From the IMG/VR virus record IMGVR_UViG_2857886120_000002: DNA of 64,000 nucleotides; one strand, written 5' to 3'. Positions 22,355 through 37,854 of this stretch are shown here, one piece after another. Numbering within the stretch: position 1 is the stretch's first letter; each line of letters opens with the position of its first letter. The notes beneath the pieces were generated by a model. The model worked only from the letters and a program-made list of their open reading frames with translations. It did not search any database and was not told the origin of the DNA. The DNA comes from an uncultured virus (IMG/VR IMGVR_UViG_2857886120_000002). Taxonomy: Duplodnaviria > Heunggongvirae > Uroviricota > Caudoviricetes. The position numbers and the translations under genes were made by a program.

Positions 22355-23965
22355 ATGTCTGCAATGAGTTTTTTTGATTATGTGACATTGTCACTAGCAT
22401 GGTTGGTAAATAACGGAATATGGAGCATTATATCATCTTCTGGTCTTTTTATTGTCCCTTTTATATTCAAAATGCTTAGCATCACGATAAATGTTATGGA
22501 GGATGGAGAATTAAAAGGTAAGCATGCAAACGTTATTCTGACTAGATTGGAAACGTACATTTATATTAGCATGGTTGTCATTTTCTTTGCATGTTATCCA
22601 TCAATTCCTCTTGATATTCGTGTATTACACTATGAGCACAGCGGATTTTCAGCAGCTATCGATAACGGAAAAATTACTCGACAGAAAATGGAATGTTCAT
22701 ACGCTGAAATATCTCCAGAATCGTCATCATTTAAAAAAAATAGTATTTTATTTAATGGGAAACAAATTTATGTTCCCATATGGTGGTATTTTGTTCATTC
22801 ATTATCTTCAGGCTTCACGCAATCTGTAGTTACGACATTACCGTGCAATACTGATTTACGAGAGATTCGTACAACAATTTCGGAGCTAGCAGTAAAAGAT
22901 CCAATTTTGAAAAAAGAAGCTAATGAATTTTATTCATTTTGTTTCAATCCTTCGTTTAACAAATTAAGTACTGAGTTGCCTAAATTACCTGATGATTTAA
23001 TTAGTGATGTGACATGGCCAGGATCGTCATACTATTTAAATACACCAGGATATTATGATTCGTTTAGAGCTCAAACTCCGCAACATCGCTGGCCATATGA
23101 TGAACAACGAGATGTTGGATTAACACCAGGAGAAGGTAATACTGGCTATCCTTCATGTAAAGCGTGGTGGAGTGACAGTAAAAATGGCTTAAAAAAAGCA
23201 CTGATTGCTGATATTAATCAGCAGATTAAGATCGAGTCTAATGAAAAATCAAAAACAGGTAATTTAAATCCAAACATTAATAAATTTTCGTTTTGGGAAT
23301 GGTTGACAAACAGTAAAGAAGAGCTGAATGGAATTGTTTTACGTTCAGTTTTAAATCCCAAAAAAATGTTACAAAGCTCAGATTATCTGTTTGTTGACTA
23401 CGAAAATAGGGATCCATCGATATCTGAGCAAGTTGGCAGTTCAATTGCGTCAGTCGGGGCATTTTTTTCTTCTATGTCGAACTTTATTGAAATTGATGCG
23501 TTGCGACAAGCAGCACCCATGGTTCAATCGATATTAATAATGTCTATTATTATTTTATTACCTATCATTATTTTAATTGGGGGATTTGAACCGAAGACGA
23601 TAATCACGCTAACATTTGTCCTATTTTCATTGATATTTTTAACATTTGTCTGGGAACTGGCACGTTTTCTAGATTCTAGACTGATTAATATTATGTATGA
23701 AAATAATGCTATTCATTTTATGTCCGATCGGTGGAATATTAATAAATCGTTAGTTGATATTATTACGTCATTTGTATTTATTGGGTTTCCGTTGATTTTA
23801 CTTACAAGTTTTTCGTGGGCTGGAGTAAAAATAGGGAATGCAATAAATAGTTTTATGGATAGAGGTTCGGATAAAATGCGACAGGCAGGAAAAGAAGGAA
23901 TGAATAAGGTTGAACAAGGTGGTAAAAAGGCAGCTAAAATAATAACGAAAGGTAAAAGTAAATAA
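22355..23965 (+). CDS. traG: TraG N-terminal-domain conjugal transfer protein (mating-pair stabilisation)
   Basis: W-VNNGIW, VPIWW-FVH-LS-G, WPGS-Y-L-TPGYYD, GYPSC--WW-D, RQA-PMVQ, WELARFLDS. Confidence 0.9.
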   Translation: MSAMSFFDYVTLSLAWLVNNGIWSIISSSGLFIVPFIFKMLSITINVMEDGELKGKHANVILTRLETYIYISMVVIFFACYPSIPLDIRVLHYEHSGFSAAIDNGKITRQKMECSYAEISPESSSFKKNSILFNGKQIYVPIWWYFVHSLSSGFTQSVVTTLPCNTDLREIRTTISELAVKDPILKKEANEFYSFCFNPSFNKLSTELPKLPDDLISDVTWPGSSYYLNTPGYYDSFRAQTPQHRWPYDEQRDVGLTPGEGNTGYPSCKAWWSDSKNGLKKALIADINQQIKIESNEKSKTGNLNPNINKFSFWEWLTNSKEELNGIVLRSVLNPKKMLQSSDYLFVDYENRDPSISEQVGSSIASVGAFFSSMSNFIEIDALRQAAPMVQSILIMSIIILLPIIILIGGFEPKTIITLTFVLFSLIFLTFVWELARFLDSRLINIMYENNAIHFMSDRWNINKSLVDIITSFVFIGFPLILLTSFSWAGVKIGNAINSFMDRGSDKMRQAGKEGMNKVEQGGKKAAKIITKGKSK

Positions 23966-23977
23966 TTAATGGTGTCA

Positions 23978-24012
23978 AAATAACTGGCATTAGATTAAAT
24001 GCCAGTTATTTA
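23978..24012. terminator. Bidirectional hairpin between convergent traG_N and DUF3742-like gene
   Basis: AAATAACTGGCATT-AGATTA-AATGCCAGTTATTT perfect inverted repeat. Confidence 0.7.
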
Positions 24013-24018
24013 AAATAA

Positions 24019-24294
24019 TCACCATTTTATCCTGCCATCTCTTGTGTAGCCATGACCTTCATCATCATCATAATACGATATTTCATTTCTTCTTTCTTCC
24101 TCTTCTTCTTTTCTTTTTTCTGGTGTCGTTTCCAAAAAAAACAGTAATACGTAGAGTATGCCTTTGAATATGAACAATATGAATTTTACAGAAACTGTTA
24201 AAATTTTTATAAATAATTCAAAACCGTCACTATTAAAAAGCATTTTATGGTTTGTGTCAGATTGTGTTGACTTATCTTTATTTTCCATTTTCAT
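24019..24294 (-). CDS. DUF3742-like small membrane protein
   Basis: TM segment, acidic stretch, G-GY--DG-R C-terminus; convergent to traG_N as in related ICEs. Confidence 0.55.
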   Translation of the reverse strand: MKMENKDKSTQSDTNHKMLFNSDGFELFIKILTVSVKFILFIFKGILYVLLFFLETTPEKRKEEEEERRNEISYYDDDEGHGYTRDGRIKW

Positions 24295-24365
24295 GTCTCT
24301 GATTAAAATTTATTCTTTTATATATAAAACATCTTTTATTTTGTGTCAATGCTAAATACTTAAAT

Positions 24366-24481
24366 GGCAAAAGCAAAGGGTAAAGGGGTAAGGTAAAAAG
24401 GGTAATGGTATTAAGGGTAATGGGCCATAATGGGAATGGCCCTACCTTGAAAAGGCTGAAAAGGCTAAAAGTAAAAAGGGC
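24366..24481 (+). repeat. Purine-skewed (G)GGTAA repeat tract with GGGCCAT/ATGGCCC hairpin; candidate oriT or protein-binding array
   Basis: Several GGG tracts, inverted repeat 24422-24442, TGAAAAGGC tandem at 24448-24465. Confidence 0.5.
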
Positions 24482-24558
24482 ATAACATAACTAGCTGTTG
24501 ATTTTTAATTTAATATTGAATTTAGTGAATAATTTACATTATAATGAAACCTGTTTCC

Positions 24559-24712
24559 GTTACTATTTAGTAGCAAACAACGAGAAGATGATCGTTAATT
24601 CTCAGACGTAGCCAGTAAAATGGGACGTTCCTTTTTTAAGGTGATCACGCACTAACAACCAACAAACTCACTGTTTTTTGCAGGTTGGTGACATCTATTT
24701 TGATGTTGAGTT
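24559..24712 (+). ncRNA. ~150-nt repeated structured leader, copy 1
   Basis: Homologous to the reverse complements of 31419-31571, 33185-33339, 34741-34895; TTGAAT(24516)-18-TATAAT(24540) promoter just upstream. Confidence 0.7.
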
Positions 24713-24750
24713 ATTTTAGACTATCACATTCACATATTGAGGTATACTCA

Positions 24751-25104
24751 ATGTCTTATGCAATTACTTTTGACTTCGATACAAGCAGGTTAGAGCACTA
24801 TTATCCTGGTGCATATACTAATGCTTATAAAGAAGTTAGAGATGAGTTAAAAAAGCTTGGTTTTGAATGGAAGCAAGGATCTGTATATTTTGGTAATAGT
24901 AGTATTAATGCAGTAACTTGTGTTTTAGCCGTTCAACAATTGGGACAAAAGTTTAGTTGGTTTACACCTTCATTGAAAGATATTCGAATGCTAAGAATTG
25001 AGGAATACAATGACTTACTTCCAGCATTAGTGCAACAACGAGAACTAACTCATGCCTCATTAGAAAAAAATGAGATCCAAAATAAAACAAGAAAATTATT
25101 TTAA
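24751..25104 (+). CDS. vapD: VapD-family (Cas2-like) nuclease
   Basis: YAITFDFD, AY-EVR-EL---GF-W-QGSVY, FSWF--S-KDIRMLRIEE--DL. Confidence 0.9.
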   Translation: MSYAITFDFDTSRLEHYYPGAYTNAYKEVRDELKKLGFEWKQGSVYFGNSSINAVTCVLAVQQLGQKFSWFTPSLKDIRMLRIEEYNDLLPALVQQRELTHASLEKNEIQNKTRKLF

Positions 25105-25200
25105 TAAGTAATTAATTGTTTTTTATCTTTTACCCATAGGGGAATATTTTCTCCTGTGGCGAAAGTATTCTCCTTATTTCACTTAATTAGGAGAATATCC

Positions 25201-25326
25201 ATGTTGACTAACGAATACATACTTCTTTCGACAGAATATTTTCTCGCTTTAATCAATTGCGAAGCAACTATTCCTGATGATGTATCATTAAGTTCAATCA
25301 TTCAACAATACTTACATAAGTCTTAA
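25201..25326 (+). CDS. 41-aa hypothetical protein (not in ORF track)
   Basis: AGGAG RBS, ATG 25201, TAA 25324-25326; preceded by a pseudoknot element. Confidence 0.5.
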   Translation: MLTNEYILLSTEYFLALINCEATIPDDVSLSSIIQQYLHKS

Positions 25327-25404
25327 TTTTAATGTCAACCGAGAGGGGGATTTTCACTCCTCTTGAGTGATACCTCCTGATTTTGTTTGAGGAGTTTTAT
25401 TATT

Positions 25405-25791
25405 ATGAGATGGTATTCAGAGCATAATATTCATACTAAATCTGAGTTAATTAATTTATTAATTGCTCCTGTTTATAGTGAACATTATGAAGAAAAAACA
25501 TTGCAATTTCATGTTTGTAATGACTATATTCATGGAGTAACCATATTATGGTCATTAATTGAATTTAATGTCATAAACGATTATCGAAACATTTTACTGG
25601 CAGGTAAATACCGTTACATAAAATGTAATTTGATTAAAAAAATTGACGAGGCTTGGAGTTATTCATGTTATTGTGAATTATCTTTTCCTCCTTATTATTC
25701 ATGTCCACTTAATTACCTTGAATTAGCTAATTTTGAAGTAAATCAAGAATGGCGAACTCAAGTTAGAAATTATCATCAACTACAAAAATAG
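25405..25791 (+). CDS. Conserved ICE hypothetical protein
   Basis: KSELI-LLIAP, LWS, RYI-C-L, P-YYSCPL-YL-LA, W R--VR-YH pattern seen in PFGI-1-class accessory regions. Confidence 0.7.
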   Translation: MRWYSEHNIHTKSELINLLIAPVYSEHYEEKTLQFHVCNDYIHGVTILWSLIEFNVINDYRNILLAGKYRYIKCNLIKKIDEAWSYSCYCELSFPPYYSCPLNYLELANFEVNQEWRTQVRNYHQLQK

Positions 25792-25877
25792 TTTTCCTAT
25801 TTCTATTTAAACCAGCTTACTTTATTACGCATAAAGTAGTTGGTTTTTATTTTTACTTTTTATACTGGAGCATTAAT

Positions 25878-26429
25878 ATGATTTCAATACCTGGTGAATT
25901 AGTCATTACGACCAGAACGGGGAGATATGGCAATTTTAATGTCGCCAAGCTTTTTACGTCTATTGGTGAATTTTCTTTAAAAGATAATAAATTATTGGAT
26001 CAGTATGAAGCTGGAAAATATGAAGGGTCGTTTGTTATTAAACAAATCAAATCTTCTTCATATAGTTATGGCAATCGTGTTGTTATTGAATGTTGTGCGT
26101 ATATTGAAGATATGGATCTAGTTAATTCATCTAAATTAGATGAAGCAGATTCAGAAAAAATACATGTATCAGAAGACCCTATTTGTCAGACTGAGTCATC
26201 TGAAGTTCAGAAAGTTAATACTGAGCATCAACATGAAGAAACTATGGCTACCTCAGATTCAGATGATGCTGAACTGTTTGGTATTTTATGGCCAATAGGT
26301 GATCAAGTTAAACTAGATTCAACGGAGGATCGCTTAAAAATACGTTCCCAGAAAAAACGTTTAATCGAACTTGGTTACCATTTTGACTATAAAAGCCAAT
26401 GTTGGAATAAATTGCCAGAACAATTTTAA
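25878..26429 (+). CDS. DUF3275-family protein
   Basis: MI-IPG-L-I----GRYG-FNV--L-TSIGEF, D-ELFG-LWP-G--VKLD-T-DR. Confidence 0.9.
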   Translation: MISIPGELVITTRTGRYGNFNVAKLFTSIGEFSLKDNKLLDQYEAGKYEGSFVIKQIKSSSYSYGNRVVIECCAYIEDMDLVNSSKLDEADSEKIHVSEDPICQTESSEVQKVNTEHQHEETMATSDSDDAELFGILWPIGDQVKLDSTEDRLKIRSQKKRLIELGYHFDYKSQCWNKLPEQF

Positions 26430-26508
26430 CTTAACTTATCTATCTCTGGGGAGAAACAGGTCTTCCTAGAGATCGTTTCTCCTTATATTGATTTAAGGAG
26501 AAACTTTA

Positions 26509-27087
26509 ATGAGTAACATTCTTACATTACAAGATATTCCTGATTTGAAATGTGATTGTTGTATTGCGAATAATGACTCCGAACTGATTTTTTTATCTGT
26601 ATGGGGGAAAGATACCGCAATGCAGGAACTCTTTGCAAAACTTACGATTGGCGAAACAACTAAACATGGTTTAACGGATATTAAGTTAAATCATCATCGG
26701 GTGTTTTTAGCCGAAGGAAAGCATTATGCAAAGCGCACATTGAAAGTAACTAAAACGTTATTTGGTTCGTTGATTCATGCTTTTATTTTTGATAAACGCA
26801 TTATTGAGCCAAACCGTGATTCAAATTCAATGATCTCTATTTATAAGGTAGAAGATGTTTCCACTAGACATAATCGTTACTTTGATGCAATTAAAACACT
26901 TTCATCTGTACCCATTTTAGAACATTGGGCTGACGAAATTGTATCGATTGCTAAACAACAAGGAATGATTAAAGAACATAAAGCAATTGTTGGTGATATT
27001 GATGCAACAACAATCATAGTAAACGACACAATATTAACTCAAATCATGAGCCAAAAAATTTGTGATGGTATTTTAACTTTATCATAA
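26509..27087 (+). CDS. Conserved ICE hypothetical protein
   Basis: LIFLSVWGKDTAMQE--AKLT, LFG-LIH--IFD-R, P-L-HW motifs; synteny before the MTase. Confidence 0.7.
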   Translation: MSNILTLQDIPDLKCDCCIANNDSELIFLSVWGKDTAMQELFAKLTIGETTKHGLTDIKLNHHRVFLAEGKHYAKRTLKVTKTLFGSLIHAFIFDKRIIEPNRDSNSMISIYKVEDVSTRHNRYFDAIKTLSSVPILEHWADEIVSIAKQQGMIKEHKAIVGDIDATTIIVNDTILTQIMSQKICDGILTLS

Positions 27088-27102
27088 TCATAGGGAGTAT
27101 TT

Positions 27103-28578
27103 ATGGTTGCACTTGTATCACCGAGAGTGGCGCATAATTTTGCTAAAAATGGCTATTATCCAACGGATGATGCTACAACAAATGCAATTATTAGCCATTT
27201 TGTAAGAACTGAGAATACTGCTATTCGAGTTTTAGATCCTTGCATTGGTGAAGCTCGAGCAGCAAGTAATATTGCGTATTCACTTAGTCATAAAGCAAAA
27301 CTATATGGTATTGAATACAATCGACATCGAGCAGAACTAGCTCAAAAATATTGTGATGTTTTGTTAAGAAGTGACTTATTTGATACCGTTATTTCACCTA
27401 ATTCCTTTGGTTTATTATTCTTAAATCCGCCATACGGAGATTTAACTAGTGAACATAATGGAGCAATTACAAATTATCAGAAAGACTACAAACGACTAGA
27501 GAAAATATTCTATCGTTTTACGATCCCGTCGCTTCAGTATAACGGTATTTTAGTATTAATAATTCCGTTTACTCAGCTTGATGAGATGCTTTCAAATTGG
27601 ATTGCAAATCAGTTCACTGATATTTCAATATTTACAGCTTGTGATAAACAATTCAAGCAAATTGTTATTTTTGGAAGAAAAGTTCGACAAAATAATATAG
27701 CACTTCAGGAAAAAAATGATGTGAAGGCGAAATTTAAGGCTATTTTTGAAGGAGAAATTGTTCCTGATGAGATAGCTGTTACAAATAAGCCAATGTATCA
27801 AATTCCTGAGCTAGAAAGTGAAATTAAGTCTTTCTATAAATTATCATTTACCGATGAAGAGTTAGGTCAGGAAGTTAAAAAGATAGGTGGATTATGGAAT
27901 GACTTTAATCTTTTTTTCAAAAAATGTTGTGAACGCAAACGCAAACCGTTGTGTAAAATGTCGGATTGGCATTTATCACTAGCACTGGCTGCTGGTGAAA
28001 TCAATGGTATTGTAAAATCCAATACAGGTAAAACTTATATCATTAAAGGTGATACTTACAAATCAAAGTCAAAAAGTGTTGAAAATACTTTTGATGATGA
28101 GGGCTTTATTGTTGAATCAAAAACAATTTTGACCGATAAATTTGTTCCTTCAATTAAGGCATGGGATTTCACTCCAAATTCAGAAACATTTGGTTCGTTA
28201 TTTCTAATTTCGAACCGAGATAATGAACCTGATGAATTGTGTGAAGATGATGGATGTCTTGAAAACAATCAATACAATTTGGTTATCACTGGAGAGATTT
28301 ATTTTACACAAGGAGTTAAGTCCTTAACAGATAGTGATTTTAATATGGCACTTGCTGTTTCAAAAGCGCTCAGTCGTTATGAAAAAGGTGATTGGGGTAA
28401 TGATATGGATGATAGTGACAAAAAATTAAATGATCGAGTTTTAAGGCAAGGACAAAAAAATGATCGCTTATTTGCAAGTTATAAGCTTTCTGATGATAAA
28501 AAACTATGGATTATTACAGAGTGGTATGATTATAAGCAAGCTTTTATGACTACACTAATGCTGCCGAATGAGTATTAA
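27103..28578 (+). CDS. ICE DNA methyltransferase (DUF6094/class I SAM, NPPY amino-MTase) with an extra C-terminal domain
   Basis: NF-KNGYYPTD, LDPCIGE, LFLNPPYGD, WHL-LALAAG; C-terminal GDWG...WIITEW...TTLMLPNEY module. Confidence 0.88.
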   Translation: MVALVSPRVAHNFAKNGYYPTDDATTNAIISHFVRTENTAIRVLDPCIGEARAASNIAYSLSHKAKLYGIEYNRHRAELAQKYCDVLLRSDLFDTVISPNSFGLLFLNPPYGDLTSEHNGAITNYQKDYKRLEKIFYRFTIPSLQYNGILVLIIPFTQLDEMLSNWIANQFTDISIFTACDKQFKQIVIFGRKVRQNNIALQEKNDVKAKFKAIFEGEIVPDEIAVTNKPMYQIPELESEIKSFYKLSFTDEELGQEVKKIGGLWNDFNLFFKKCCERKRKPLCKMSDWHLSLALAAGEINGIVKSNTGKTYIIKGDTYKSKSKSVENTFDDEGFIVESKTILTDKFVPSIKAWDFTPNSETFGSLFLISNRDNEPDELCEDDGCLENNQYNLVITGEIYFTQGVKSLTDSDFNMALAVSKALSRYEKGDWGNDMDDSDKKLNDRVLRQGQKNDRLFASYKLSDDKKLWIITEWYDYKQAFMTTLMLPNEY

Positions 28579-28659
28579 TTCTGTATTAATTAAAACATTA
28601 ACCCATAAGGGATACAATCCCTTGTGGAGCTTGTATCCCTTTTTATTTAAGGATTAAAA

Positions 28660-30966
28660 ATGGAACAAGTAACATTAAATACACAAATTGATTTAAATAG
28701 TTTTATTAATGAATTTAAAGATTCATTATTGGATAGTTTGAATGCATCTAATCCTCCAGTTTACCTTCAGGATGATATGTCATTTGAACGACAATCAATT
28801 ATGGAACAGTTAAAACGTAAACCATTTAGTGAACAAGCTAATGTTGTACAGGCTGTTACAAAATTGTTATTAGATCAGAATGAACCTGCAGCGATTATCA
28901 ATGCTGAAATGGGAACAGGAAAGACAATGATGGCAATTGCTGTGGCAGCAGTACTTCACTATGAAGCCCAGTATCGACGTAATCTGATAATTTCGCCACC
29001 TCATCTTGTATATAAATGGCGACGAGAAATTTTAGAAACGATACCTAGTGCAAGAGTATGGGTTTTAAATGGCTCAGATACGCTTGTGAAGCTATTAAAA
29101 TTGAGGCAAGAGCTTAAGTTAGGTATTACATCTAATGTGCCTGAATTCTACATTTTAGGACGTGTTCGAATGCGGATGGGATACCACTGGAAACATGCCT
29201 TGAAATCAAAACCTATTTACCAAAAGCAAAATATTCATGATGAGCACGGGGAGGTTAAAACAAAATACATAAAAAGAGACTGTGCTGCTTGTCCAGACTG
29301 TTATAATTTTTGTCGTGATGACGAGGGTGAGTTAATTCTTTTTAGCGATTTTGTTTTGAAAGAACATCGAACAACTTGTGTGAGTTGTGGCAGTGCTTTA
29401 TGGACTTTGATTAGACCATCAAATAACTCAAATTCTAGTTTTAGAGACAGAGTTAAAAAATCAATGTGTCAAATTCCGACAATTGGACCAGTAAAAGCTG
29501 AATCTTTAATTAATAAATTTGGTGACGATTTTCTATCTGATCTGCTTGCGGATAATGCATCAGATTTTGTTAATTTGATGGATGAAGATGGTGAGTTTAT
29601 TTTCACTGACAGACAAGCAATAAGAATGGAAAAAGCTTTAGCTAAACTTGAATTTGGTTTTGGCGAAGGTGCTTATCAAGCTACCGAATTTATCAAAAGA
29701 TATTTACCACAAGGATTTTTTGATTTATTGATTGTTGATGAAGGTCATGAGTATAAAAATCAAGGCTCTGCACAAGGGCAGGCGATGGGTGTGCTTGCCA
29801 GCCAAGTTAAAAAGATTTTACTTTTAACTGGTACTCTTATGGGAGGATATGCAGATGACCTATTTTTTTTACTTTTTCGTGTATTAACGTCTAAGATGAT
29901 TGAAGACGGTTATAAACCGAATAGCAGAGGTTCACTTGGTACCGCAGCAATGGAGTTTATGCGAGATCATGGAATCATTAAAGACCTATATACGGAAAGG
30001 CATGGAAATAGTCATAAAACAGCCAAAGGTAATCAGATTTCTCATCGAACACAAAAAGCTCCAGGTTTTGGACCAAAGGGTATTTTACGATATGTATTAC
30101 CGTATACAGTATTTCTAAAGCTTAAAGATATTGGTGATAATATTCTCCCGAATTATACTGAAGAGTATATTGATATTCCAATGTCATATGAGCAACGAAG
30201 TTATTACGATGATTTATCGAATAAACTTAAGAGTGAGTTGAGAAGTGCATTAGTGAAAAGAGATACAACATTACTTGGTGTTGTACTCAATACCTTACTT
30301 GCATGGCCTGACTGCTGTTTTAGAGCAGAAACAGTCACTCATCCAAGAGCACGAGAAGATAAGCTGGCTTTTGTGCCATCTGTATTTAGTGGTGATGAGG
30401 GTGATAGTTTTATTGAATGTTCGCCAAAAGAGCAATCTTTAGTTGAACATTGTTTAGCTGAAAAAACAGATGGTCGTAAAGTATTAGTATATGCAACTTA
30501 TACTGGTACTCGAGACATAACTGGACGGCTTAAGCTTATTTTAGAACAAGCTGGTTTAAAAACAGCTATATTAAAATCGAATGTGTCGCCAGAGAAAAGG
30601 GAGGATTGGATCTTAGACAAAGTGGATAAAGATTATGATATTGTCATAACAAATCCAGAACTTGTTAAAACTGGTCTTGATTTACTTGATTTTCCGACCA
30701 TTATTTTCTTGCAAACTGGTTTTAATGTTTACACATTGCAACAAGCAGCAAAACGCTCGTTTAGAATTGGCCAAAAAAATGATGTAAAAGTGATTTATTT
30801 GGGCTATGAAAATTCAGCACAAACAAGCTGTTTAAAATTAATGGCAAAAAAAATAGCAGTTTCACAAAGTACATCAGGAGATATACCAGATTCGGGATTA
30901 GATATACTCAATTCTGATGATGAATCTATTGAGATGGCTTTAGCGAAACAGCTAATTGCATCATAA
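28660..30966 (+). CDS. SNF2/DEAD-like superfamily 2 helicase
   Basis: NAEMGTGKT, DEGHE, LTGT, NPELVKTGLDL, QAAKRSFRIGQ. Confidence 0.92.
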   Translation: MEQVTLNTQIDLNSFINEFKDSLLDSLNASNPPVYLQDDMSFERQSIMEQLKRKPFSEQANVVQAVTKLLLDQNEPAAIINAEMGTGKTMMAIAVAAVLHYEAQYRRNLIISPPHLVYKWRREILETIPSARVWVLNGSDTLVKLLKLRQELKLGITSNVPEFYILGRVRMRMGYHWKHALKSKPIYQKQNIHDEHGEVKTKYIKRDCAACPDCYNFCRDDEGELILFSDFVLKEHRTTCVSCGSALWTLIRPSNNSNSSFRDRVKKSMCQIPTIGPVKAESLINKFGDDFLSDLLADNASDFVNLMDEDGEFIFTDRQAIRMEKALAKLEFGFGEGAYQATEFIKRYLPQGFFDLLIVDEGHEYKNQGSAQGQAMGVLASQVKKILLLTGTLMGGYADDLFFLLFRVLTSKMIEDGYKPNSRGSLGTAAMEFMRDHGIIKDLYTERHGNSHKTAKGNQISHRTQKAPGFGPKGILRYVLPYTVFLKLKDIGDNILPNYTEEYIDIPMSYEQRSYYDDLSNKLKSELRSALVKRDTTLLGVVLNTLLAWPDCCFRAETVTHPRAREDKLAFVPSVFSGDEGDSFIECSPKEQSLVEHCLAEKTDGRKVLVYATYTGTRDITGRLKLILEQAGLKTAILKSNVSPEKREDWILDKVDKDYDIVITNPELVKTGLDLLDFPTIIFLQTGFNVYTLQQAAKRSFRIGQKNDVKVIYLGYENSAQTSCLKLMAKKIAVSQSTSGDIPDSGLDILNSDDESIEMALAKQLIAS

Positions 30967-30983
30967 TAAAACAGTTATTCCAT

Positions 30984-31012
30984 AAAAAAACGCAACAATT
31001 GTTGCGTTTTTT
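30984..31012. terminator. Bidirectional terminator, duplicated at 31714-31741
   Basis: A7-CGCAACAATTGTTGCG-Tn palindrome between convergent genes. Confidence 0.75.
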
Positions 31013-31032
31013 TTGGTTTTTAAAGAGTTTGA

Positions 31033-31329
31033 TTACAATATACCATATTGTTCAAGTTGTTCAAGTATACTTAAATCTAAATTTTTTAATAATTTGATGA
31101 ATTTTTTATAATGACTAGCACTAACAATGATTTTTCTATCTACAGTTAGAAGAGAGTAGTTATATTTTAAACTCATCTTTTCATGATATTTTTTTCTGTA
31201 AGAAATAAAATCTTTCAGTGAGTCAAATATATAAACATCTTCATCATTAAAAACCCCATCTTTTGTAAAGACTATTAGACCAATGCAGCAAAGTCCGTCA
31301 TTTAGAAGAGTTTCTAGTTTATTATTCAT
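31033..31329 (-). CDS. Hypothetical protein (98 aa)
   Basis: AAGGAG RBS and ATG at 31329 downstream of leader copy 2. Confidence 0.65.
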   Translation of the reverse strand: MNNKLETLLNDGLCCIGLIVFTKDGVFNDEDVYIFDSLKDFISYRKKYHEKMSLKYNYSLLTVDRKIIVSASHYKKFIKLLKNLDLSILEQLEQYGIL

Positions 31330-31418
31330 GATATTCTCCTTGGAAATATGAGTGAAATTAAAAGGAGAATATTTTCGCCATAGGGAAAATTTTCCCCTAT
31401 GGGTGAGTGGATGACTGA

Positions 31419-31571
31419 AACTCAACATCAAATAGATGTTACCAACCTGCAAGAAACAGTGAGTTTGTTGGCTGTTAGTGTGTGATCACCTTAATTAAAA
31501 GGAACGTCCCATTTCTGGCTACGTCTGAGAATTAATGATCATCTTCTCGTTGTTTGTTACTAAAAAATAAC
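31419..31571 (-). ncRNA. ~150-nt repeated structured leader, copy 2
   Basis: Homologous to copy 1; TTGAAT(31611)-16-TATACT(31589) promoter on the minus strand. Confidence 0.7.
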
Positions 31572-31739
31572 TAAGGCAGAATCAGTATACTAATTTATCT
31601 CAAATATTCAATACTAGCATGAAAAAAATGTGGAAGTTTTGCTTTTTTATTTGTAATGTTACAGTCAATGTACGAACCTACTCCAGTTGAATGTAAGTCA
31701 AAAGTTATTTTATAAAAAAACGCAACAATTGTTGCGTTT

Positions 31740-32072
31740 TTATTGATTTTTAGATGGTTTTTTATCAAAACAAATCTCTTTTAACTGAGTTTCAGTGAAA
31801 TTATTTTGTTCAGAATCTGCAAAATCCGAAATAGTAAAATTACAAACTTCCCCCCATGTTACTAGGCACTCAACACACGTTATTGGGTATTTGTTTTCAG
31901 CGATTTTTAGAGAATCGCCGATTACTTCATTTTTTTCATTTCTTTTTATTGTATAGCTATTGCAGAGCGTGCCATCACTAGTTGCTATATGTGTTAATGT
32001 TCGTTGTAGAACTAGTCCTTTTTGTGTTTTAATTTGTTCGATTGTTGTAATTGTTTTTTTGATTGTTTCCAT
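31740..32072 (-). CDS. Hypothetical protein
   Basis: ORF with GAGG RBS, ending at a terminator copy. Confidence 0.6.
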   Translation of the reverse strand: METIKKTITTIEQIKTQKGLVLQRTLTHIATSDGTLCNSYTIKRNEKNEVIGDSLKIAENKYPITCVECLVTWGEVCNFTISDFADSEQNNFTETQLKEICFDKKPSKNQ

Positions 32073-32200
32073 TATTAGCCTCAACTCCTCTTTTTAAATC
32101 TATCTTCATTCAGTATTCCTTAATTAAATTTCTCACCTCTGCACTGAATAAAATCAGTTGTAAAAAAAGCAAGTTTCCTTGCTTTCTTATTGTGAATTAT

Positions 32201-32614
32201 TTAACTAGTTAAGAGACAAATATTATCAATAATTTCACCATCAATACTTAATACAGCTTCAGAATACAAATCAAAATAGGCATTATGACCTAATTCTTTT
32301 AAATGCTCCAAAAAACAAATCAAAAAACATTGTGTATAATCTCCTGATGATAAAATTTCTTTATAAGATGAATTGAAACGGCTAGCAATTTTATGATTGA
32401 AATCATTTAAATTATTACATTGCCATTGTTTTATCAACCAATCTTCCATTTTTGATAGATAGAGATTAAATTCAACGCCTTCTCCATCAGAGAATGAATT
32501 AATCAAATCATATCGTTTAATATTAGATAATATATCGTCATCAATTTTTATAATGTCATCTCTAAGATAGAGTCGTTTACTAGTAACATTATCAAGTTTA
32601 TTTTCAATATACAT
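32201..32614 (-). CDS. Hypothetical protein
   Basis: 137-aa ORF, AGGAG RBS within a pseudoknot element, terminator at 32163-32185. Confidence 0.65.
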   Translation of the reverse strand: MYIENKLDNVTSKRLYLRDDIIKIDDDILSNIKRYDLINSFSDGEGVEFNLYLSKMEDWLIKQWQCNNLNDFNHKIASRFNSSYKEILSSGDYTQCFLICFLEHLKELGHNAYFDLYSEAVLSIDGEIIDNICLLTS

Positions 32615-32699
32615 AAGTGTTCTCCTATAGTTTTAAGTTTCAAAGGAGAACCCTCCATTAGGAGTATTCTCCTAATGGAAATGGAATTGTGTAGAGTTT

Positions 32700-33092
32700 T
32701 TATAAAGCTAATTCATAATTAGATAGATCAATGAGTTTAGCTATTTCAATATTACGAACAATAGGTAATTTGCGTTTCAGATATTCGAGGAAATTAGTTG
32801 TTGGGTTTAACTGCCAATGAACTAATACTACATTTACTAAGCCACTAATTACTATGTTCTGGGTAGAATTGTCTACTATTGATGCACGTTTAACTTTACA
32901 TGGACGATTATTAATTTCACCATCCATCCAAATATCACCAAGAAGGTGAGTAATTTCATTTTCAACCTCAATAATTGAATTAAAACTACGCTCAGAAGTG
33001 ATAATTTCGACCTGATTATTGTCAGTAAAAGTGATCTCTAGTTTAAATCCATAATTATTTGTAAATAAGTCTTTAATGTAATTAATTGTCAT
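32700..33092 (-). CDS. Hypothetical protein
   Basis: GGAG RBS and ATG at 33092 downstream of leader copy 3. Confidence 0.65.
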   Translation of the reverse strand: MTINYIKDLFTNNYGFKLEITFTDNNQVEIITSERSFNSIIEVENEITHLLGDIWMDGEINNRPCKVKRASIVDNSTQNIVISGLVNVVLVHWQLNPTTNFLEYLKRKLPIVRNIEIAKLIDLSNYELAL

Positions 33093-33339
33093 AATATTCT
33101 CCAAAATTAAGTCAATAAAAAGGAGAATTTATGCCCGATAGGGATAAAATTCCCCTATGGGTGAGTAAAAGGTAAGTTAATAAGAACTCAACATCCAATA
33201 GATGTTACCAACCTGCAAGAAACAGTGAGTTTGTTGGCTGTTAGTGTGTGATCACCTTAATTAAAAGGAACATACCATTTTACTGGCTATGTCTGAGAAT
33301 TAACGATCATCCTCTCGTTGTTTGCTACTAAAAGTAGCG
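33088..33339 (-). repeat. 252-bp direct repeat A (leader copy 3 + pseudoknot + RBS + start codon)
   Basis: Matches 34644-34895 with two mismatches by eye. Confidence 0.95.
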
Positions 33340-33359
33340 AAAAAAATTAGTATAACGAT

Positions 33360-33650
33360 TTAATTAATGCGCTGCTTTGCATCGTTGTAAACATTTAAAG
33401 ATTCTCGCTTACCTATCGCTAACACTTTGATAATAATAAGCTCATCAATAACTTTATAGACCATTCTGAATCCAGACGACCTCAATTTTATTTTGAAACA
33501 CCCAGATAGTGAACCACTTAACTTAGCTGATTCAATATAAGGGTTAATCTGAAGTTTTTTTAACTTTTTTTTAAATTGAAGCTGTATACTCCGATCTAAT
33601 TTATTCCATTCTTTAAATGCCTTTTCATCGAACACGACTTTAAAGGTCAT
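33360..33650 (-). CDS. relE: RelE/StbE-family toxin
   Basis: F-EKA-KEW-KLD-SI--QFKKKL, KIKLRSSG-R-VY-V, AIGKRE. Confidence 0.93.
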   Translation of the reverse strand: MTFKVVFDEKAFKEWNKLDRSIQLQFKKKLKKLQINPYIESAKLSGSLSGCFKIKLRSSGFRMVYKVIDELIIIKVLAIGKRESLNVYNDAKQRIN

Positions 33651-34017
33651 CCACATTCACCTCAATAATTTTACCTGGGTTTCTGAGTCTATCTTCGGCA
33701 ATTCTAAGAATATCTTCATCTTCGTCAATACACGGAACTAAACGAATTATTTCCGGTTGGTTTGATTTATGTTTAATTTGCCATAAATCATACTGGGATT
33801 GTAATGATAACCACATTCTTGCAGTGCTAATTCCGGCTAGTTCTAATCGCCAAGCTAGGGTTGGCGAAATAGGGGCTTTACCATGTAACACTCTTGATAT
33901 TGTTTCACGTGAAAAACCTAGATGTTTAGCAAAATCAGTAATAGTCATATTTAATGTATTAGGTAAAATTTCGTCTAATAAAATTTCACCAGGATGTGAA
34001 GGGTTAAACATTTCCAT
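33640..34017 (-). CDS. higA: HigA-family HTH antitoxin with a RelB/StbD-like C-terminal tail
   Basis: HPGEIL, A-HLG-SR-T-SR, A-MWL-LQ-QYDLW; tail EDILRIAEDRL...EVNVDDL overlapping relE start. Confidence 0.85.
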   Translation of the reverse strand: MEMFNPSHPGEILLDEILPNTLNMTITDFAKHLGFSRETISRVLHGKAPISPTLAWRLELAGISTARMWLSLQSQYDLWQIKHKSNQPEIIRLVPCIDEDEDILRIAEDRLRNPGKIIEVNVDDL

Positions 34018-34025
34018 AAATGCTC

Positions 34026-34082
34026 CAATACCTCTAGTTGGACTAGTTTCAAAAGTTCCAGTCCTTTATGTTCAAAACTTTT
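34026..34082 (-). pseudogene. Remnant of higB toxin 5' end
   Basis: Minus strand reads KSFEHKGLEL then, after a frameshift, FETSPTRGI, resembling HigB N-termini; it runs directly into the higA RBS. Confidence 0.55.
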
Positions 34083-34183
34083 AAGCCTTTTTCCGTGATG
34101 AATTACATCACAAATGGAGAGTTGAAGCAACTGATTTAACAATTAAAAAAGCAAGTTTCCTTGCTTTTTTGAGTTGTTAATTG

Positions 34184-34648
34184 TTACGCAACATTACTGA
34201 GTTCTTCATCATGTTGAGGTTCACTTTGATTTTCTAAATGCTCGATTTTATCCGAATATTTAAGTTCACCATCAATTTTAATGCTGGAGATTTTTAGTAA
34301 TCGAGCTTTTAAATTGATTCCAACATTTCCTTTTTTAACTCCAGTGCTGTATGTAAATGTTTCAGCATAGATATCACCGACGCAAAAACTGATTAAGATT
34401 TTTTTGTTGGCTTTATTTGCTTCAATGCATTTTTCAACTAAGCTTTTTGCTTTTTCACCGGTAACGTTACAGTTAATGTAGGTATATTCGGCGTTTTGGC
34501 AATTTCCTCGCAGTGCGGCGATTGTACATGATAAATACGGTTTACCATTTTTGACTTTAACTTCACGGATTCGGTTTAAATAGCCAATTCCAGTTGTATG
34601 TAAATCAAAAAATTGTTTAGTTACTGTGTTATTAGTTAAGTTAGTCAT
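34184..34648 (-). CDS. DUF3577 / STY4534-family ICE protein
   Basis: FFDLHTTGIGYLNRIREV, L-CTIAALRG, LKARLL-I--IKIDGE. Confidence 0.9.
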   Translation of the reverse strand: MTNLTNNTVTKQFFDLHTTGIGYLNRIREVKVKNGKPYLSCTIAALRGNCQNAEYTYINCNVTGEKAKSLVEKCIEANKANKKILISFCVGDIYAETFTYSTGVKKGNVGINLKARLLKISSIKIDGELKYSDKIEHLENQSEPQHDEELSNVA

Positions 34649-34895
34649 AATATTCTCCAAAATTAAGTCAATAAAAAGGAGAATTTATGCCCGATAGGGA
34701 TAAAATTCCCCTATGGGTGAGTAAAAGGTAAGTTAATAAGAACTCAACATCCAATAGATGTTACCAACCTGCAAGAAACAGTGAGTTTGTTGGCTGTTAG
34801 TGTGTGATCACCTTAATTAAAAGGAACATACCATTTTACTGGCTATGTCTGAGAATTAACGATCATCTTCTCGTTGCTTGCTACTAAAAGTAGCG
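34644..34895 (-). repeat. 252-bp direct repeat B (leader copy 4 + pseudoknot + RBS + start codon)
   Basis: Matches 33088-33339; TTGCGA(34934)-16-TATAAT(34912) promoter upstream on the minus strand. Confidence 0.95.
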
Positions 34896-35018
34896 GAAAC
34901 AAACTAATTATACTAATTAAGTAAAAATTCGCAATATGAGTATTTATTTTTCTATATTAAATATGGTTCATCAAGTTTATATTGATAAACATACAGGTTT
35001 TTAAAAATTGTATTGATT

Positions 35019-36869
35019 ATGCTTCATTTCATAAAAAAGTTAATTGTTAAAAATAAACATGAGAGTATCAGTACTAATGAGAATTTATCATCATTGGAAG
35101 ACTGGTATATTCCAAAATCGGCAACAGAATTGCTTGATACACCTTCTCGAAAAAAGCTGATCTCACTAATTTGGCAACGAGTATCAATTGATCAACAAAG
35201 ATTTAATAAATTATATATGGATGTTATCAATAATTATGTTGAAATAGTGCAATTACTGCCCGCTTCGGAGGCACACCATCATTCGTATACAGGTGGTATG
35301 ATTGATCACGGACTTGAGGTGGCAAATTATGCATTGAAGTTGAGGCAATCTTACTTACTTGGAGCTAACGCAGAAGATATTCCAAGACAAGCTCAAGCTT
35401 GGAGTGCTGCAGTTGTATACGGTGCATTGTTACATGACATAGGTAAAGTTGTTGTAGATGTTCATGTTGAAATGAATGACGGTAACATTTGGTATCCCTG
35501 GCAAAGTAATTTAGCTTTACCATATCGGTTTAATTACAAAAAAGATAGAGATTATTCTCTTCATCCATGTGCAGCTACACTAATGGTTAAGCGAATTTTG
35601 CCAGATGAAAGTATCACTTGGTTATCTCAATTCCCAGAATTATTTAAATCATTTTTAAGTTTATGTTCTGGTCACACTGAAAAAGCTGGCGTATTATCTG
35701 AAATTATACAAAAAGCAGATATGTTTTCTGTATCGAATAATCTAGGTGGAGATCCAACAAAAATACTGAGCAAACCAGTATCATTAATGAGTAAAATGAT
35801 AGTTTCGATAAGGTATTTAGTTGAGTCGGAATTAATTTTGAATGGTCCAAAAGCTTGCGATGGCTGGTTTGATGGGAAAGATGTTTGGGTTATCAGTAAG
35901 TCATTCACCGATAAAATGAAAGCTAATTTGTTGCAAAATGGTATAACTGATATACCGACTGATAATGCAAAAATATTTAATATACTAAGAGAGCATGGGA
36001 TAGCAATAGCAAATGAAGATAAAACTATTTGGCCGTGTAAAATTGAATCTGAGGAGAGTGGTTGGATTGCTGAAAAATTAACACTTATCCGTATACCTGC
36101 TAATGTTGCTTTTCATAATATTACTAATGCTCCAGAACCATTCAAGGGTTCAATCACTCCACTGTTAACAGAAGCAGATGATCTTAACTCCATACGTGAT
36201 AATATTTCAACGGAAGAGGTTAAAGAAGAGTCTAAATTAAACATTGCATCTGAGTCTGTAGATGACAAAGCTTCTAGAATGCAAGATACAATATTGAACC
36301 TATTTTCTAATGAACAAACAAATACTGCGATATCTGAAGTAGATATAGCTGATAATCATGATGATTGCGACAATTTTAAAGAGGATCGTCAAATAAGAGA
36401 AAATGATTTAAAAAATAATAATATTTCTATTTCAAATGAGTGTATTTCTAACACATTAGATAATGATGATATCTATAATCACCCATTTTTTAAATGGGTT
36501 AGACGTCAAATTATTGATAAAAAATTACCTGTTAATAACCAAAATGCATGCATTCATACTGTTGATGGTAAAATATTCATGATAACTCCTAAAATTTTTA
36601 AAAAATATAGTTTATATATACATGGTAATGATGATGATAGTAACTGGAAACAATATCAACGTGAATTTCAAGAGTTGAAAATTCATACAAAATTCAGTGA
36701 TGAAGGATTTAATATCTGGAAGTGCCTAATTTCTGGGAAAAGAAAAAGCCATACTTTTATCAAAGGTTATTTAATTGATAACAAACCATTATTTGCTATT
36801 GAGAATAATTTGCATGATAATCCACATCTAACATTAATTCATGATGTTAATATTTACAAAAACAATTAG
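35019..36869 (+). CDS. mobH: MobH-family relaxase (TraI_2, HD domain)
   Basis: VQLLPASEAHHHSY-GGM-DHGLEV, ALLHDIGK, I-KAD; adjacent to integrase. Confidence 0.93.
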   Translation: MLHFIKKLIVKNKHESISTNENLSSLEDWYIPKSATELLDTPSRKKLISLIWQRVSIDQQRFNKLYMDVINNYVEIVQLLPASEAHHHSYTGGMIDHGLEVANYALKLRQSYLLGANAEDIPRQAQAWSAAVVYGALLHDIGKVVVDVHVEMNDGNIWYPWQSNLALPYRFNYKKDRDYSLHPCAATLMVKRILPDESITWLSQFPELFKSFLSLCSGHTEKAGVLSEIIQKADMFSVSNNLGGDPTKILSKPVSLMSKMIVSIRYLVESELILNGPKACDGWFDGKDVWVISKSFTDKMKANLLQNGITDIPTDNAKIFNILREHGIAIANEDKTIWPCKIESEESGWIAEKLTLIRIPANVAFHNITNAPEPFKGSITPLLTEADDLNSIRDNISTEEVKEESKLNIASESVDDKASRMQDTILNLFSNEQTNTAISEVDIADNHDDCDNFKEDRQIRENDLKNNNISISNECISNTLDNDDIYNHPFFKWVRRQIIDKKLPVNNQNACIHTVDGKIFMITPKIFKKYSLYIHGNDDDSNWKQYQREFQELKIHTKFSDEGFNIWKCLISGKRKSHTFIKGYLIDNKPLFAIENNLHDNPHLTLIHDVNIYKNN

Positions 36870-36895
36870 TGAGAAAATGAGAATCAGGAGTATTT

Positions 36896-37854
36896 ATGGA
36901 AATAAAAAAAGAAAAAATATCTTGGCAGGAATTGCTCATAGTATATCTAGAATTTAAACAATTGCGTAAACAAACTATCTATAATTATAGAAGGTATATT
37001 GAAGCATTTACTCGATTTTTTAATAGTGATTTTACAAATATTAACTCAATTAACCATAAAACAGTATCAAACTTTAGAAGCCATATTTTGGAGGTCAGAC
37101 AATGTAAACATGTAACGTGGAATAGTTATTGTCGTCATTTTAAAGCGTTAATGGGATTTGGTATAGAACAAGGCTTAGTTATTCAAAAAAAAATCCATTT
37201 GATAAGATGTTAATAAAACCAGGAAAGAAAGCTAAAAAGACTATATCACAAGCAGATATTGATATTTGTTTAAGTTTTCTTAAAGAAAAACAGCTAAAAG
37301 AATCACCAAGAGATTTTTGTTATCCCGCCCAATTTTGGATAACACTGATTAAAATTTTGCAGTATACGGGTATTCGACGTAATCAATTGTTGCATATTCG
37401 TATTTGTGATATTAATGATAAAGATAAAAAACTTTTTTTAAGAGAAGAGGGTTCGAAAACCCATAACGAAAGAGAAATTCCTCTGATTGACGATGTTTTT
37501 CAAGATATTGTTGAATTAAAGAAACAATTAAAGATGTTAAATAAAAAAACGACCATGCAGCTATTTAATATTTATCATTTTAAAAATGATAAATGTGATT
37601 ATTACAAAGAAATGAATTTTGATCGAATAGATGCGTTTTTTCAGCGATTATCAAAAGTTTGCAATGTTAAAGTTAGTCCGCATCGATTCAGGCATACATT
37701 AGCAACAAATCTGATGAAACAGCCAGATCGAAATGTAACATTAGTAAAGGAGCTATTAGGGCATTCATCGTTGTCAACAACATTAGAGTATATAGTAACA
37801 GATCATGATCAATTAAGATCTTGTTTAGATGAGCATTTTAATCAATTAAAATAA
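36896..37854 (+). pseudogene. Tyrosine recombinase (XerC-like ICE integrase) split by a frameshift at an A9 run (37185-37193)
   Basis: N-part with TWNSY-RH-KAL (36896-37213); C-part in the -1 frame with YTGIRRNQL, SKT, SPHRFRHTLAT, LGHS, Y; adding one A restores QKKNPFDKMLIKPG. Confidence 0.85.

Follow-up and report, generated by a model that had tools for sequence, protein, structure and literature searches.

The 64,000-nt stretch of DNA analysed here (the window), taken from the uncultured virus record IMG/VR IMGVR_UViG_2857886120_000002, carries an integrative conjugative element (ICE) of the bee-gut bacterium Gilliamella at about positions 300 to 37,850, followed by a P2-like prophage with C4 and isrK RNAs. 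The subject of this work is a set of eight short structured RNA modules that directly precede accessory gene starts of this ICE. The window has a G+C content of 34.7%, and its SNF2-type helicase shares 97–99% identity with the helicases of two Gilliamella records (L001 and L002). Family searches over the ICE identified an AcaB-like regulator, Ssb, a topoisomerase, a coupling protein, TraC, TraU, and TraG_N, as well as DUF3275, a DUF6094 methyltransferase, the SNF2 helicase, a HigA/RelE-type pair, DUF3577, a TraI_2 relaxase, and an integrase. The DUF3577 gene corresponds to the NCBIfam entry 'STY4534 family ICE replication protein', and we take the element to be of the ICEclc/PAPI-1/SPI-7 kind, an assignment in which only the STY4534 name comes from a search. 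The C4 and isrK RNAs, both in the prophage part, were the only Rfam matches in the window at gathering score, and over positions 23000-37000, where the modules lie, Rfam yielded nothing credible even at E ≤ 10.

The eight sites had been proposed in an earlier reading of the letters and open reading frames (ORFs) alone (the sequence-only reading), which described a recurring layout of paired segments running into the start codon. This layout was found at all eight. In each case, the minimum free energy (MFE) fold comprises a 5′ hairpin of 10–13 bp (H1), followed within 0–5 nt by a second hairpin (H2) that ends at the start codon, the ATG lying 3–7 nt past H2 in the modules of the window (Table 1). 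The 5′ arm of H2 is a pyrimidine-rich anti-Shine–Dalgarno (anti-SD) segment, termed B′, and its 3′ arm consists of the Shine–Dalgarno (SD) segment and part of the spacer. The SD-like segment B, assigned to the 5′ arm and loop of H1, lies mostly within the H1 stem in the MFE folds and not in an open loop. Fold energies at the eight sites range from −21.0 to −34.3 kcal/mol per ~80 nt, the lowest being that of E3. Across the 74 called genes of the window, 88-nt upstream folds of −21.0 kcal/mol or lower were found for 11, seven of which are module genes; gene calling had a limit of 80 aa, and the 41-aa gene behind E1 is thus outside this count. A motif of the H1 5′ arm, CCCATAGGGG, occurs six times with at most one mismatch against 0.87 expected, and five of the six occurrences fall in modules.

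Table 1. Positions of the modules and associated upstream features in the window. H2 is the anti-SD:SD hairpin; R1 is the covariance model described in the text; duplex energies are in kcal/mol.
Feature	Position	Strand	H1	H2	ATG	Downstream gene or basis	R1 E value	B:B′ duplex	B′:SD duplex
E1	25130..25203	+	25134-25159	25166-25197	25201	41-aa ORF	8.7e-9	14 bp, −18.2	
E2 (weakest)	25335..25407	+	25340-25365	25374-25394	25405	128-aa ORF without family	1.8	−14.0	−10.7
E3	26440..26511	+	26442-26473	26475-26504	26509	192-aa ORF without family	0.0039	−15.5	−16.1
E4	28598..28662	+	28603-28627	B′ 28631-28641; weak H2 28638-28652	28660	SNF2-family helicase (helicase leader)	0.018		−4.2
E5	31327..31407	-	31402-31378	31372-31331	31329	98-aa ORF	1.2e-8		
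E6	32612..32682	-	32681-32652	32651-32619	32614	137-aa ORF	0.017		
E7	33090..33165	-	33161-33134	33133-33090	33092	130-aa ORF	1.8e-8		
E8 (sequence = E7)	34646..34721	-	34717-34690	34689-34646	34648	DUF3577 / STY4534-family gene	1.8e-8		
Structured leader upstream of E5	31404..31580	-				repeat families and consensus fold			
Structured leader upstream of E7	33164..33349	-				repeat families and consensus fold			
Structured leader upstream of E8	34720..34905	-				~165-185 nt; repeat families D1-D3 and consensus fold			
Sigma-70-like promoter TTGCGA-16-TATAAT	34907..34934	-				upstream of E8 leader; consensus match only, 10/12			

The sequence-only reading had counted eight sequence-diverged elements. 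All eight sites stand, but the divergence is incomplete: E7 and E8, which lie in a 259-nt repeat that is 98% identical, have the same sequence, leaving seven distinct elements, and E1, E5, and E7 are visibly alike. The example sequences it had quoted are present as written, and its ranking of E2 as the weakest copy agrees with tenth place for that site in the model search described below. In the seven distinct copies, the summed energy of the cognate H1 × B′ duplexes was −100.1 kcal/mol against a permutation mean of −75.5 kcal/mol, a value reached by 8 of 5040 permutations, and the corresponding sum for B′ × SD was −82.4 against −67.0 kcal/mol, reached by 10 of 5040. The B:B′ duplexes of the window span 10–14 bp and equal the B′:SD duplexes in strength. 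These permutation results indicate that the three segments change together between copies, as had been claimed.

A covariance model of the nested H1 and H2 pairings (R1) was built from 13 modules of Pseudomonas, Ventosimonas, Kushneria, and Thiotrichaceae, with no Gilliamella sequence. Run unfiltered on both strands of the window, R1 placed E1, E5, E7, E8, E3, E6, and E4, in that order, as its top seven matches (8.7e-9 to 0.018); the next was the antisense of E5 H1 (E = 0.13), and no other sense-strand match with E < 1 was present in the 64 kb. We then applied R1 to 80 related ICE loci (1.58 Mb) retrieved via the helicase gene from Gilliamella, Pseudomonas, Halomonas and relatives, Thiotrichaceae, and many Burkholderiales. 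This search gave 218 matches at E ≤ 0.01, 216 of them on the helicase (gene) strand, and among the best 150 matches, 148 run up to the start codon of an ORF no shorter than 50 aa, whereas 47% of random ATGs open such an ORF. Of the 124 best matches in full-length loci, 121 are located within 10 kb upstream of the helicase, and in a sample of one genome per genus across the class, clustered matches occurred in 12 of 151. Columns without variation in the model are the stem GGG/CCC, the SD sequence GGAGAA, and the ATG, while the H1 loops vary in sequence and length. Together with the upstream folds, the H1-arm motif, and the permutation sums, this search excludes chance as the origin of the layout, and the observation is real and general across related islands.

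An independent, cruder scan with a two-hairpin grammar was too permissive by itself, passing 592 of 2050 gene starts. Filtering left 253 modules whose intergenic space was 60 nt or more, 126 of them non-redundant and 117 testable, a set that includes probable chance matches before cargo genes (FAD oxidase, P-type ATPase, sulfate permease). In 49 of the 117 two-hairpin leaders, the cognate B:B′ duplex fell in the top decile against GC- and length-matched controls (median rank 0.125). The genes behind these leaders encode SNF2 helicase (9), DUF3275 (7), DUF5983 (5), RadC (4), DUF3577 (3), and DUF6573 (2) proteins, with DUF6094, DUF932, and DUF2958 also represented, and for 72 of the 117 proteins there is no Pfam family. 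A raw 'three-way' duplex score performed well in the AT-rich window and was set aside as non-discriminating in GC-rich loci (median −9.3 kcal/mol). The module is unmatched in Rfam, Rfam 15 giving radC alone in the loci scanned, and no paper describing it was found in the literature searched, which left most subscription journals outside; it therefore appears to be undescribed so far. The genes behind the modules are the most poorly understood ones in a major conjugative-island family (DUF3275, DUF3577, DUF5983, RadC, a methyltransferase, an SNF2 helicase, and many small proteins of no assigned function), and the element would represent a widespread RNA regulatory module that is absent from Rfam.

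The leader of the helicase gene keeps this architecture among relatives but not its sequence, and each helicase-leader subfamily has its own B segment matched by its own B′ (examples of B: AAGGGAUACAA, CAGGGUAUG, GGGGCAUGC, ACGGGCAGAAC, GAGGUAUUAAA). Complementarity was measured for one representative of each of 13 subfamilies, the segment windows being drawn from a structure-blind MAFFT alignment (A1). The B × B′ sum was −268.0 against −164.6 ± 13.8, reached by none of 200,000 permutations, and the B′ × SD sum was −112.0 against −91.2, reached by 720 of 200,000. A second test covered 33 non-redundant modules (alignment A6), with segments defined by covariance-model columns. Here, B × B′ (−450.3 vs −292.2), B′ × SD, corresponding to H2 (−388.7 vs −278.8), and B × b′, corresponding to H1 with b′ as its 3′ arm (−452.2 vs −329.0), were each reached by 0 of 100,000 permutations. 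The candidate fourth helix, b′:SD, was weak in the same 33 modules (−153.1 vs −142.4, reached by 4078 of 100,000) and was not retained. Automatic identification of H1 was likewise abandoned: it took the B:B′ hairpin in several orthologues, and the alignment-column and model-defined segments were used instead.

Alignment columns gave a concordant picture. In A1, which holds 42 helicase leaders, 84.7% of the cells of B:B′ are paired against 23–54% for slid controls, with two-sided changes in 5 of 10 pairs; the inner H1 stem reaches 82.5% against 34–51%, and the covariation scores of both helices exceed those of all 500 shuffles. In A4 (16 modules), H2 is paired in 82.9% of cells, with a covariation score of 0.205 against 0.126 that was reached in 0 of 500 shuffles. 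These column counts are conservative because MAFFT left several rows out of register. B:B′ and the inner H1 stem both occupy A1 columns 28–33, so they cannot coexist, and this sharing of nucleotides between H1 and B:B′ gives the RNA at least two states. By dot-bracket reading, the predicted ground state of 24 orthologous helicase leaders was the long B:B′ hairpin in 11, H1 plus H2 in 12, and another fold in one, an alternation that would be expected of a near-balanced two-state RNA. On this comparative evidence, the three helices exist as copy-specific complementarities, two of which are mutually exclusive, and the alignments and permutations support the view that B′ has two alternative partners, with both pairings kept by selection. 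The sequence-only reading had proposed that B′ can pair either with B or with the SD, and cognate pairing of both kinds was copy-specific in the window, in the helicase leaders, and in the 33 modules. It had also named detection of a single static fold as evidence to the contrary; one static fold is insufficient because B also pairs with b′, a helix that is equally supported, and no single fold can satisfy all three.

The copy-specific matching bears on the idea that the modules are CsrA/RsmA-type repressor sites, in which one protein dimer would bind a GGA in the decoy B and another in the SD, the likeness of B and SD then reflecting protein recognition. CsrA targets have a two-site architecture, and in most modules a GGA or GGGGA within B is separated by ~40–50 nt from the GGAG of the SD. 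However, the likeness of B and SD extends into copy-variable flanks and is matched by B′, helicase-type B segments such as GGGUAU and GGGCAG contain no GGA, and the GGA of B is predicted to be paired within the H1 stem, not exposed in a loop. We regard this explanation as very unlikely.

The polarity of the modules and the nature of their base pairs similarly speak to a function in single-stranded DNA (ssDNA) during conjugative transfer, such as a priming site, an ssDNA promoter, or a recombination site. The genes concerned are ICE DNA-metabolism genes, and this type of idea was raised by the authors who described the STAXI motif, in the part of their report devoted to it (PMC2864571). Nevertheless, the modules occur on both strands of the window, always in gene sense, end at the start codon, and include the SD. 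G-U pairs, which would turn into A-C on the opposite strand, are frequent throughout the three helices, as fits a sense-strand RNA. An ssDNA element is accordingly the least probable explanation that we considered, and an extremely unlikely one.

A cis-acting translational switch that gates initiation by strand exchange is, in our judgement, the best reading of the data, with a probability of roughly 60%. Each copy would constitute a self-contained RNA element placed in the leader 5′ of an ICE accessory gene, with four segments arranged in the order B (an SD-like decoy), b′, B′ (the anti-SD), and SD with its spacer, and connected by the pairing chain b′-B-B′-SD. In the proposed OFF state, B would pair with b′ in H1, closed by an outer CCC/GGG clamp (A:A′), and B′ would pair with the SD in H2, hiding the ribosome-binding site (RBS). 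In the ON state, B′ would be captured by B in one long hairpin that leaves b′ and the RBS single-stranded. Candidate openers of the clamp include a protein or RNA acting on its 5′ side and a change in conformation imposed by the structured leader upstream (in relatives, radC); as a further candidate, a pioneer ribosome might displace B′, whereupon B would latch B′. A translational switch had also been inferred in the sequence-only reading, and the comparisons, which point to mutually exclusive pairings kept by selection, support it. The trans-acting factor that this reading had raised may be counted among the candidates, but the link that it drew to STAXI motifs is not upheld.

Predicted energies are compatible with such a gate that is closed at rest. 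Freeing the RBS of the Gilliamella modules costs 7.2–15.2 kcal/mol at the ensemble level, and the corresponding cost in 50 well-supported modules has a median of 7.9 kcal/mol. From a cost of 7–15 kcal/mol it follows that the module would be OFF by default, and the modules are predicted to be strongly OFF, without spontaneous opening. When the RBS was forced open, the MFE folds of E1, E3, E6, and E7 made use of B:B′. Path estimates for the Gilliamella modules gave barriers of 15.6–22.2 kcal/mol from OFF to ON and 4.9–11.2 kcal/mol from ON to OFF; the two states of E4 are nearly iso-energetic (−19.2 vs −17.7 kcal/mol), with barriers of ~18–20 kcal/mol. Blocking 2–8 nt of the 5′ side of H1, that is, the outer clamp, lowered the median cost of freeing the RBS from 8.4 to 3.1–4.2 kcal/mol, and blocking at least 14 nt, with B included, brought it up to ~10 kcal/mol. 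From these predicted energies we infer that the outer clamp of H1 serves as a lock and that B is required for opening.

Several points weigh against the strand-exchange switch. All energies are nearest-neighbour predictions without pseudoknots. B:B′ betters the open state of the Gilliamella modules by only ~1–5 kcal/mol over an open state that keeps H1, and with so small a gain the decoy would hardly matter at equilibrium and a trigger must be postulated. E2 is not significant under R1, and the H2 of E4 is weak (Table 1). The slid controls for B:B′ in A4 are high (55–75% paired), because the segments are of low complexity. Upstream stop codons come no closer to H1 than 11 nt and are spread broadly (11–42 nt) with no peak, and radC as a base-pairing trigger was rejected, as it showed no cognate complementarity to A, B, b′/A′, B′, or SD (p 0.14–0.49). 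The tract of U residues that follows B′ fits a terminator as well as it fits an S1 or standby site. Unzipping of the clamp by a terminating ribosome was dismissed as unlikely, with stop codons at least 11 nt away and no distance peak; a looser set of modules had pointed to a distance of 8–18 nt from stop to H1.

The same predictions could be explained by static occlusion of the RBS, in which H2 would impose fixed-level repression or tuning, H1 would stabilise or insulate, and B:B′ would be a by-product of inverted duplication of the SD helix or of concerted evolution. In Gilliamella the OFF state is favoured by 7–15 kcal/mol behind barriers of 16–22 kcal/mol, no trigger was found by the stop-codon-distance and radC-complementarity tests, and the modules start at least 11 nt past the upstream stop, as if clear of the terminating ribosome. 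What renders this account improbable is the behaviour of the helices across subfamilies: B:B′ reaches H1 loop nucleotides that lie outside the H1 pairing and is kept with entirely different sequences in each subfamily, b′ × SD, which mere duplication would also have preserved, is barely above chance (4078 of 100,000), and B:B′ is the predicted ground state in 11 of the 24 orthologous helicase leaders.

The U residues downstream of B′ raise the question of transcription attenuation, in which the long B:B′ hairpin and its U tract would form an intrinsic terminator (OFF) and H1 would act as the antiterminator (read-through). The 8 nt after the B′ arm contain 4.06 U on average against 1.88 expected from locus composition in the 33 modules, including at ~60% G+C, and in 13 of the 33 modules at least five of these positions are U. 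A GC-rich B:B′ stem followed by U runs is found in every helicase-leader subfamily, GC-rich genomes included, B′:SD is weak in many helicase leaders (−4 to −9 kcal/mol), and a terminator scan flagged the H1 of E3 and of E6 with a downstream U-rich run. Yet the 'loop' of such a terminator would measure ~25–35 nt and contain a competing stable hairpin that is transcribed first, and many of the U tracts are interrupted. Furthermore, copy-specific B′:SD pairing (0 of 100,000) would be needless for a terminator, and in E1-type modules the SD would stay hidden even on read-through, making both states OFF. Attenuation may apply to the helicase type, where H2 is weak, and is disfavoured as the general function; overall we consider it unlikely.

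The sequence-only reading had described the elements as pseudoknots. The geometry leaves room for a partial pseudoknot or for exchange between folds, but makes a form with both full stems doubtful. Between H1 and the B′ duplex the median linker is 2 nt, and the B:B′ helix (median 10 bp) leaves no more than ~4 nt of the 5′ arm outside it, so that combining the outer clamp with the full B:B′ helix would leave ~0–1 nt to cross the 10-bp stem and 2 nt to cross the clamp. By the rules of pseudoknot stereochemistry, linkers this short disfavour both full stems at once. A full H-type pseudoknot is thus sterically doubtful, and a truncated one with a second stem of ~6–7 bp may form.

A partial form of this kind, with the clamp kept and the H1 loop paired to B′, might act as an operator read by an ICE or host protein that traps or releases the ribosome. 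The 5′ part of B′ does find partners among the nucleotides of the H1 loop, and the conserved ACCC...GGG clamp is a candidate recognition feature. Against this, with the median 2-nt linker and ~4 nt 5′ of the B duplex, the second stem would be limited by the stereochemical rules to at most ~6–7 bp, and the H1 loops are conserved neither in sequence nor in length, so one protein could read shape only. A precedent exists in the Escherichia coli rpsO operator and its equilibrium between a double hairpin and a pseudoknot, as treated in the corresponding part of PMC3985624. That operator, which is bound by S15, resembles the module in that two RBS hairpins stand against an alternative fold using the loop of the first hairpin (PMC3985624, same part); it differs in serving one autoregulated gene with a specific protein ligand, whereas the module precedes many unrelated genes. 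Taken together, we hold a protein-operated pseudoknot to be quite unlikely.

Kinship with STAXI motifs, as assumed in the sequence-only reading, did not hold up: the Rfam STAXI model (RF01728) gave no match in the window at gathering score and none in 23000-37000 even at E ≤ 10, although the same model works elsewhere, with matches in 2 of 151 genomes of the order. STAXI consists of 2–3 tandem units with conserved CCAAUG, a CUGAGAG internal loop, and UUCG-capped hairpins, is typed as a small RNA, and is not fused to an RBS, whereas the modules of the window are single, lack CUGAGAG and UUCG motifs, and end at the start codon. The resemblance lies in the proposal of a pseudoknot and in context: the ICE of the window also has ssb and topoisomerase genes, and STAXI is located near Ssb, topoisomerase, antirestriction, and integrase genes of mobile elements, according to its entry in PMC2864571. 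In a genome of the same order, an EFASI RNA (RF02957; L084 2935-3067) lies ~1.3 kb from a STAXI match.

The closest known neighbour of the module is the radC motif (RF01754; Weinberg et al. 2010, PMC2864571). Rfam gave 3–4 radC copies per locus in Pseudomonas, Bordetella, and other ICEs, and an nhmmer profile built from 17 matches detected 108 radC-like sites in 49 of the 80 loci and none in the window. Downstream of 55 of the 108 sites, within 120 nt, lies one of the best 150 module matches, at a distance of 8–12 nt in 27 of the 55. radC is present 2–4 times per locus in L007, L012, L016, L057, L069, and L077 (for example at L016 4110-4254 and 4739-4886). The two share the same ICE neighbourhood and gene families (RadC, DUF3577, methyltransferase, helicase), and the modules, like radC, are located in 5′ untranslated regions of mobile-element genes for DNA metabolism. 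In relatives, the module comes after radC and before the start codon, an order that was found where we looked and from which the module may be the expression platform of radC. The 149-position, four-hairpin Rfam model of radC stops before the module, and modules also occur without radC, namely 95 of the best 150 matches and all eight sites of the window, where the radC model had no match, 23000-37000 included. Some rows of the radC seed alignment in PMC2864571 do contain an H1-like hairpin, ACCCACA-AGGGA...UCCCU-UGUGG, at their 3′ end. In that paper radC appears in a row of the main-text table, in supplementary tables, in drawings, and in alignments, where no description of an anti-SD/SD switch was found, and its descriptive supplement has no text with the word radC. 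No paper on the mechanism of radC was found in the literature searched. The module would give this motif of unknown function a concrete, testable downstream partner.

In Gilliamella, the place that radC has in Pseudomonas ICEs is held by a different structured leader. Its three copies (Table 1), with blocks that are 91–100% identical, each abut a module (E5, E7, or E8). A search with 301 nt of the leader gave no Rfam match at E ≤ 10, to radC or otherwise, and none with the radC nhmmer profile. A second sigma-70-like promoter is found upstream of a leader copy at 31611-31584, so that two of the three copies have one. A 259-nt leader-plus-module unit (33088-33346 and 34644-34902) stands before two unrelated genes, one for a 130-aa protein of no assigned family and the other for DUF3577, and such sequence repeats suggest that promoter-leader-module cassettes may have been duplicated or recombined as units.

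Among other regulatory RNAs, translational riboswitch platforms provide a parallel in mechanism. The TPP riboswitch thiM operates through an anti-anti-SD, an anti-SD, and the SD, and the module likewise has an anti-SD placed between the SD and an upstream competitor, for which the thiM literature uses the term 'anti-anti-SD'. Unlike a riboswitch, the module has no conserved ligand-binding core, its H1 loops vary, and its competitor is locked by a fourth strand; no Rfam riboswitch family was matched in the window. Thermometer families of Rfam (ROSE, fourU, and similar) were not matched there either, and the predicted opening cost of 7–15 kcal/mol is higher than is known for RNA thermometers, whose SD hairpins are marginally stable and melt near physiological temperature. 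In ermC attenuation, four segments pair as 1:2 and 3:4 when OFF, and exchange frees segment 4 with the SD. The module differs in that the exchange would be 1:3 and not 2:3, and in having no leader-peptide ORF over segment 1, with stop codons at least 11 nt away. Metastable anti-SD logic of the same type operates in hok of plasmid R1. Successive or alternative anti-SD pairings also keep the aapA3 mRNA of Helicobacter pylori untranslated until refolding, a behaviour like that proposed for the module, as outlined in the relevant part of PMC6733600. These toxin mRNAs each serve one toxin gene and are coupled to mRNA processing and antisense RNA, neither of which is evident for the module.

A broader proposal may be put forward tentatively, and we think it more probably wrong than right: ICEs of this family might place a portable, ligand-free strand-exchange gate, the missing expression platform of radC, before most of their establishment and maintenance genes (at least seven copies per element), opened jointly by a single event at the 5′ clamp of H1 or latched open by the first ribosome. 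Were this so, the gene set as a whole would be expressed all-or-none from each mRNA and possibly in each cell, adding a post-transcriptional layer on top of the known bistability of transfer competence in such ICEs. The module would also represent a compact, sequence-programmable RBS switch of ~70 nt, whose three helices are open to mutation and compensation.

Further observations concern the genes around the modules. The Gilliamella DUF3275 gene (25878-26429) has no module, being preceded by a plain SD and a terminator-like hairpin; in seven other loci, the DUF3275 genes have the module. The plus-strand operon with E1–E4 opens with a VapD/Cas2-like ORF (24685-25104), which matched NCBIfam VapD at 1.4e-16, below the curated cut-off, and Pfam Cas2 at 5.7e-6. 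A ribonuclease fold adjoining RNA modules is thereby possible from sequence similarity, and nothing links the ORF and the modules. Between the two leader-module units on the minus strand (33360-34017) lies a pair encoding a HigA-type antitoxin and a RelE/ParE-type toxin, without a module of its own. The integrase is split over two overlapping ORFs, 36896-37213 and 37207-37854, which carry the SAM-like N-terminal domain and the catalytic domain, respectively, and may reflect a frameshift or a split gene. Finally, two pairs of near-identical bidirectional terminator-like hairpins, AAAAACGCAACAATTGTTGCGTTTTT and AAAAAAGCAAGTTTCCTTGCTTTTTT, are reused behind different accessory genes, at 30984-31013 / 31716-31741 and 32163-32188 / 34145-34170.

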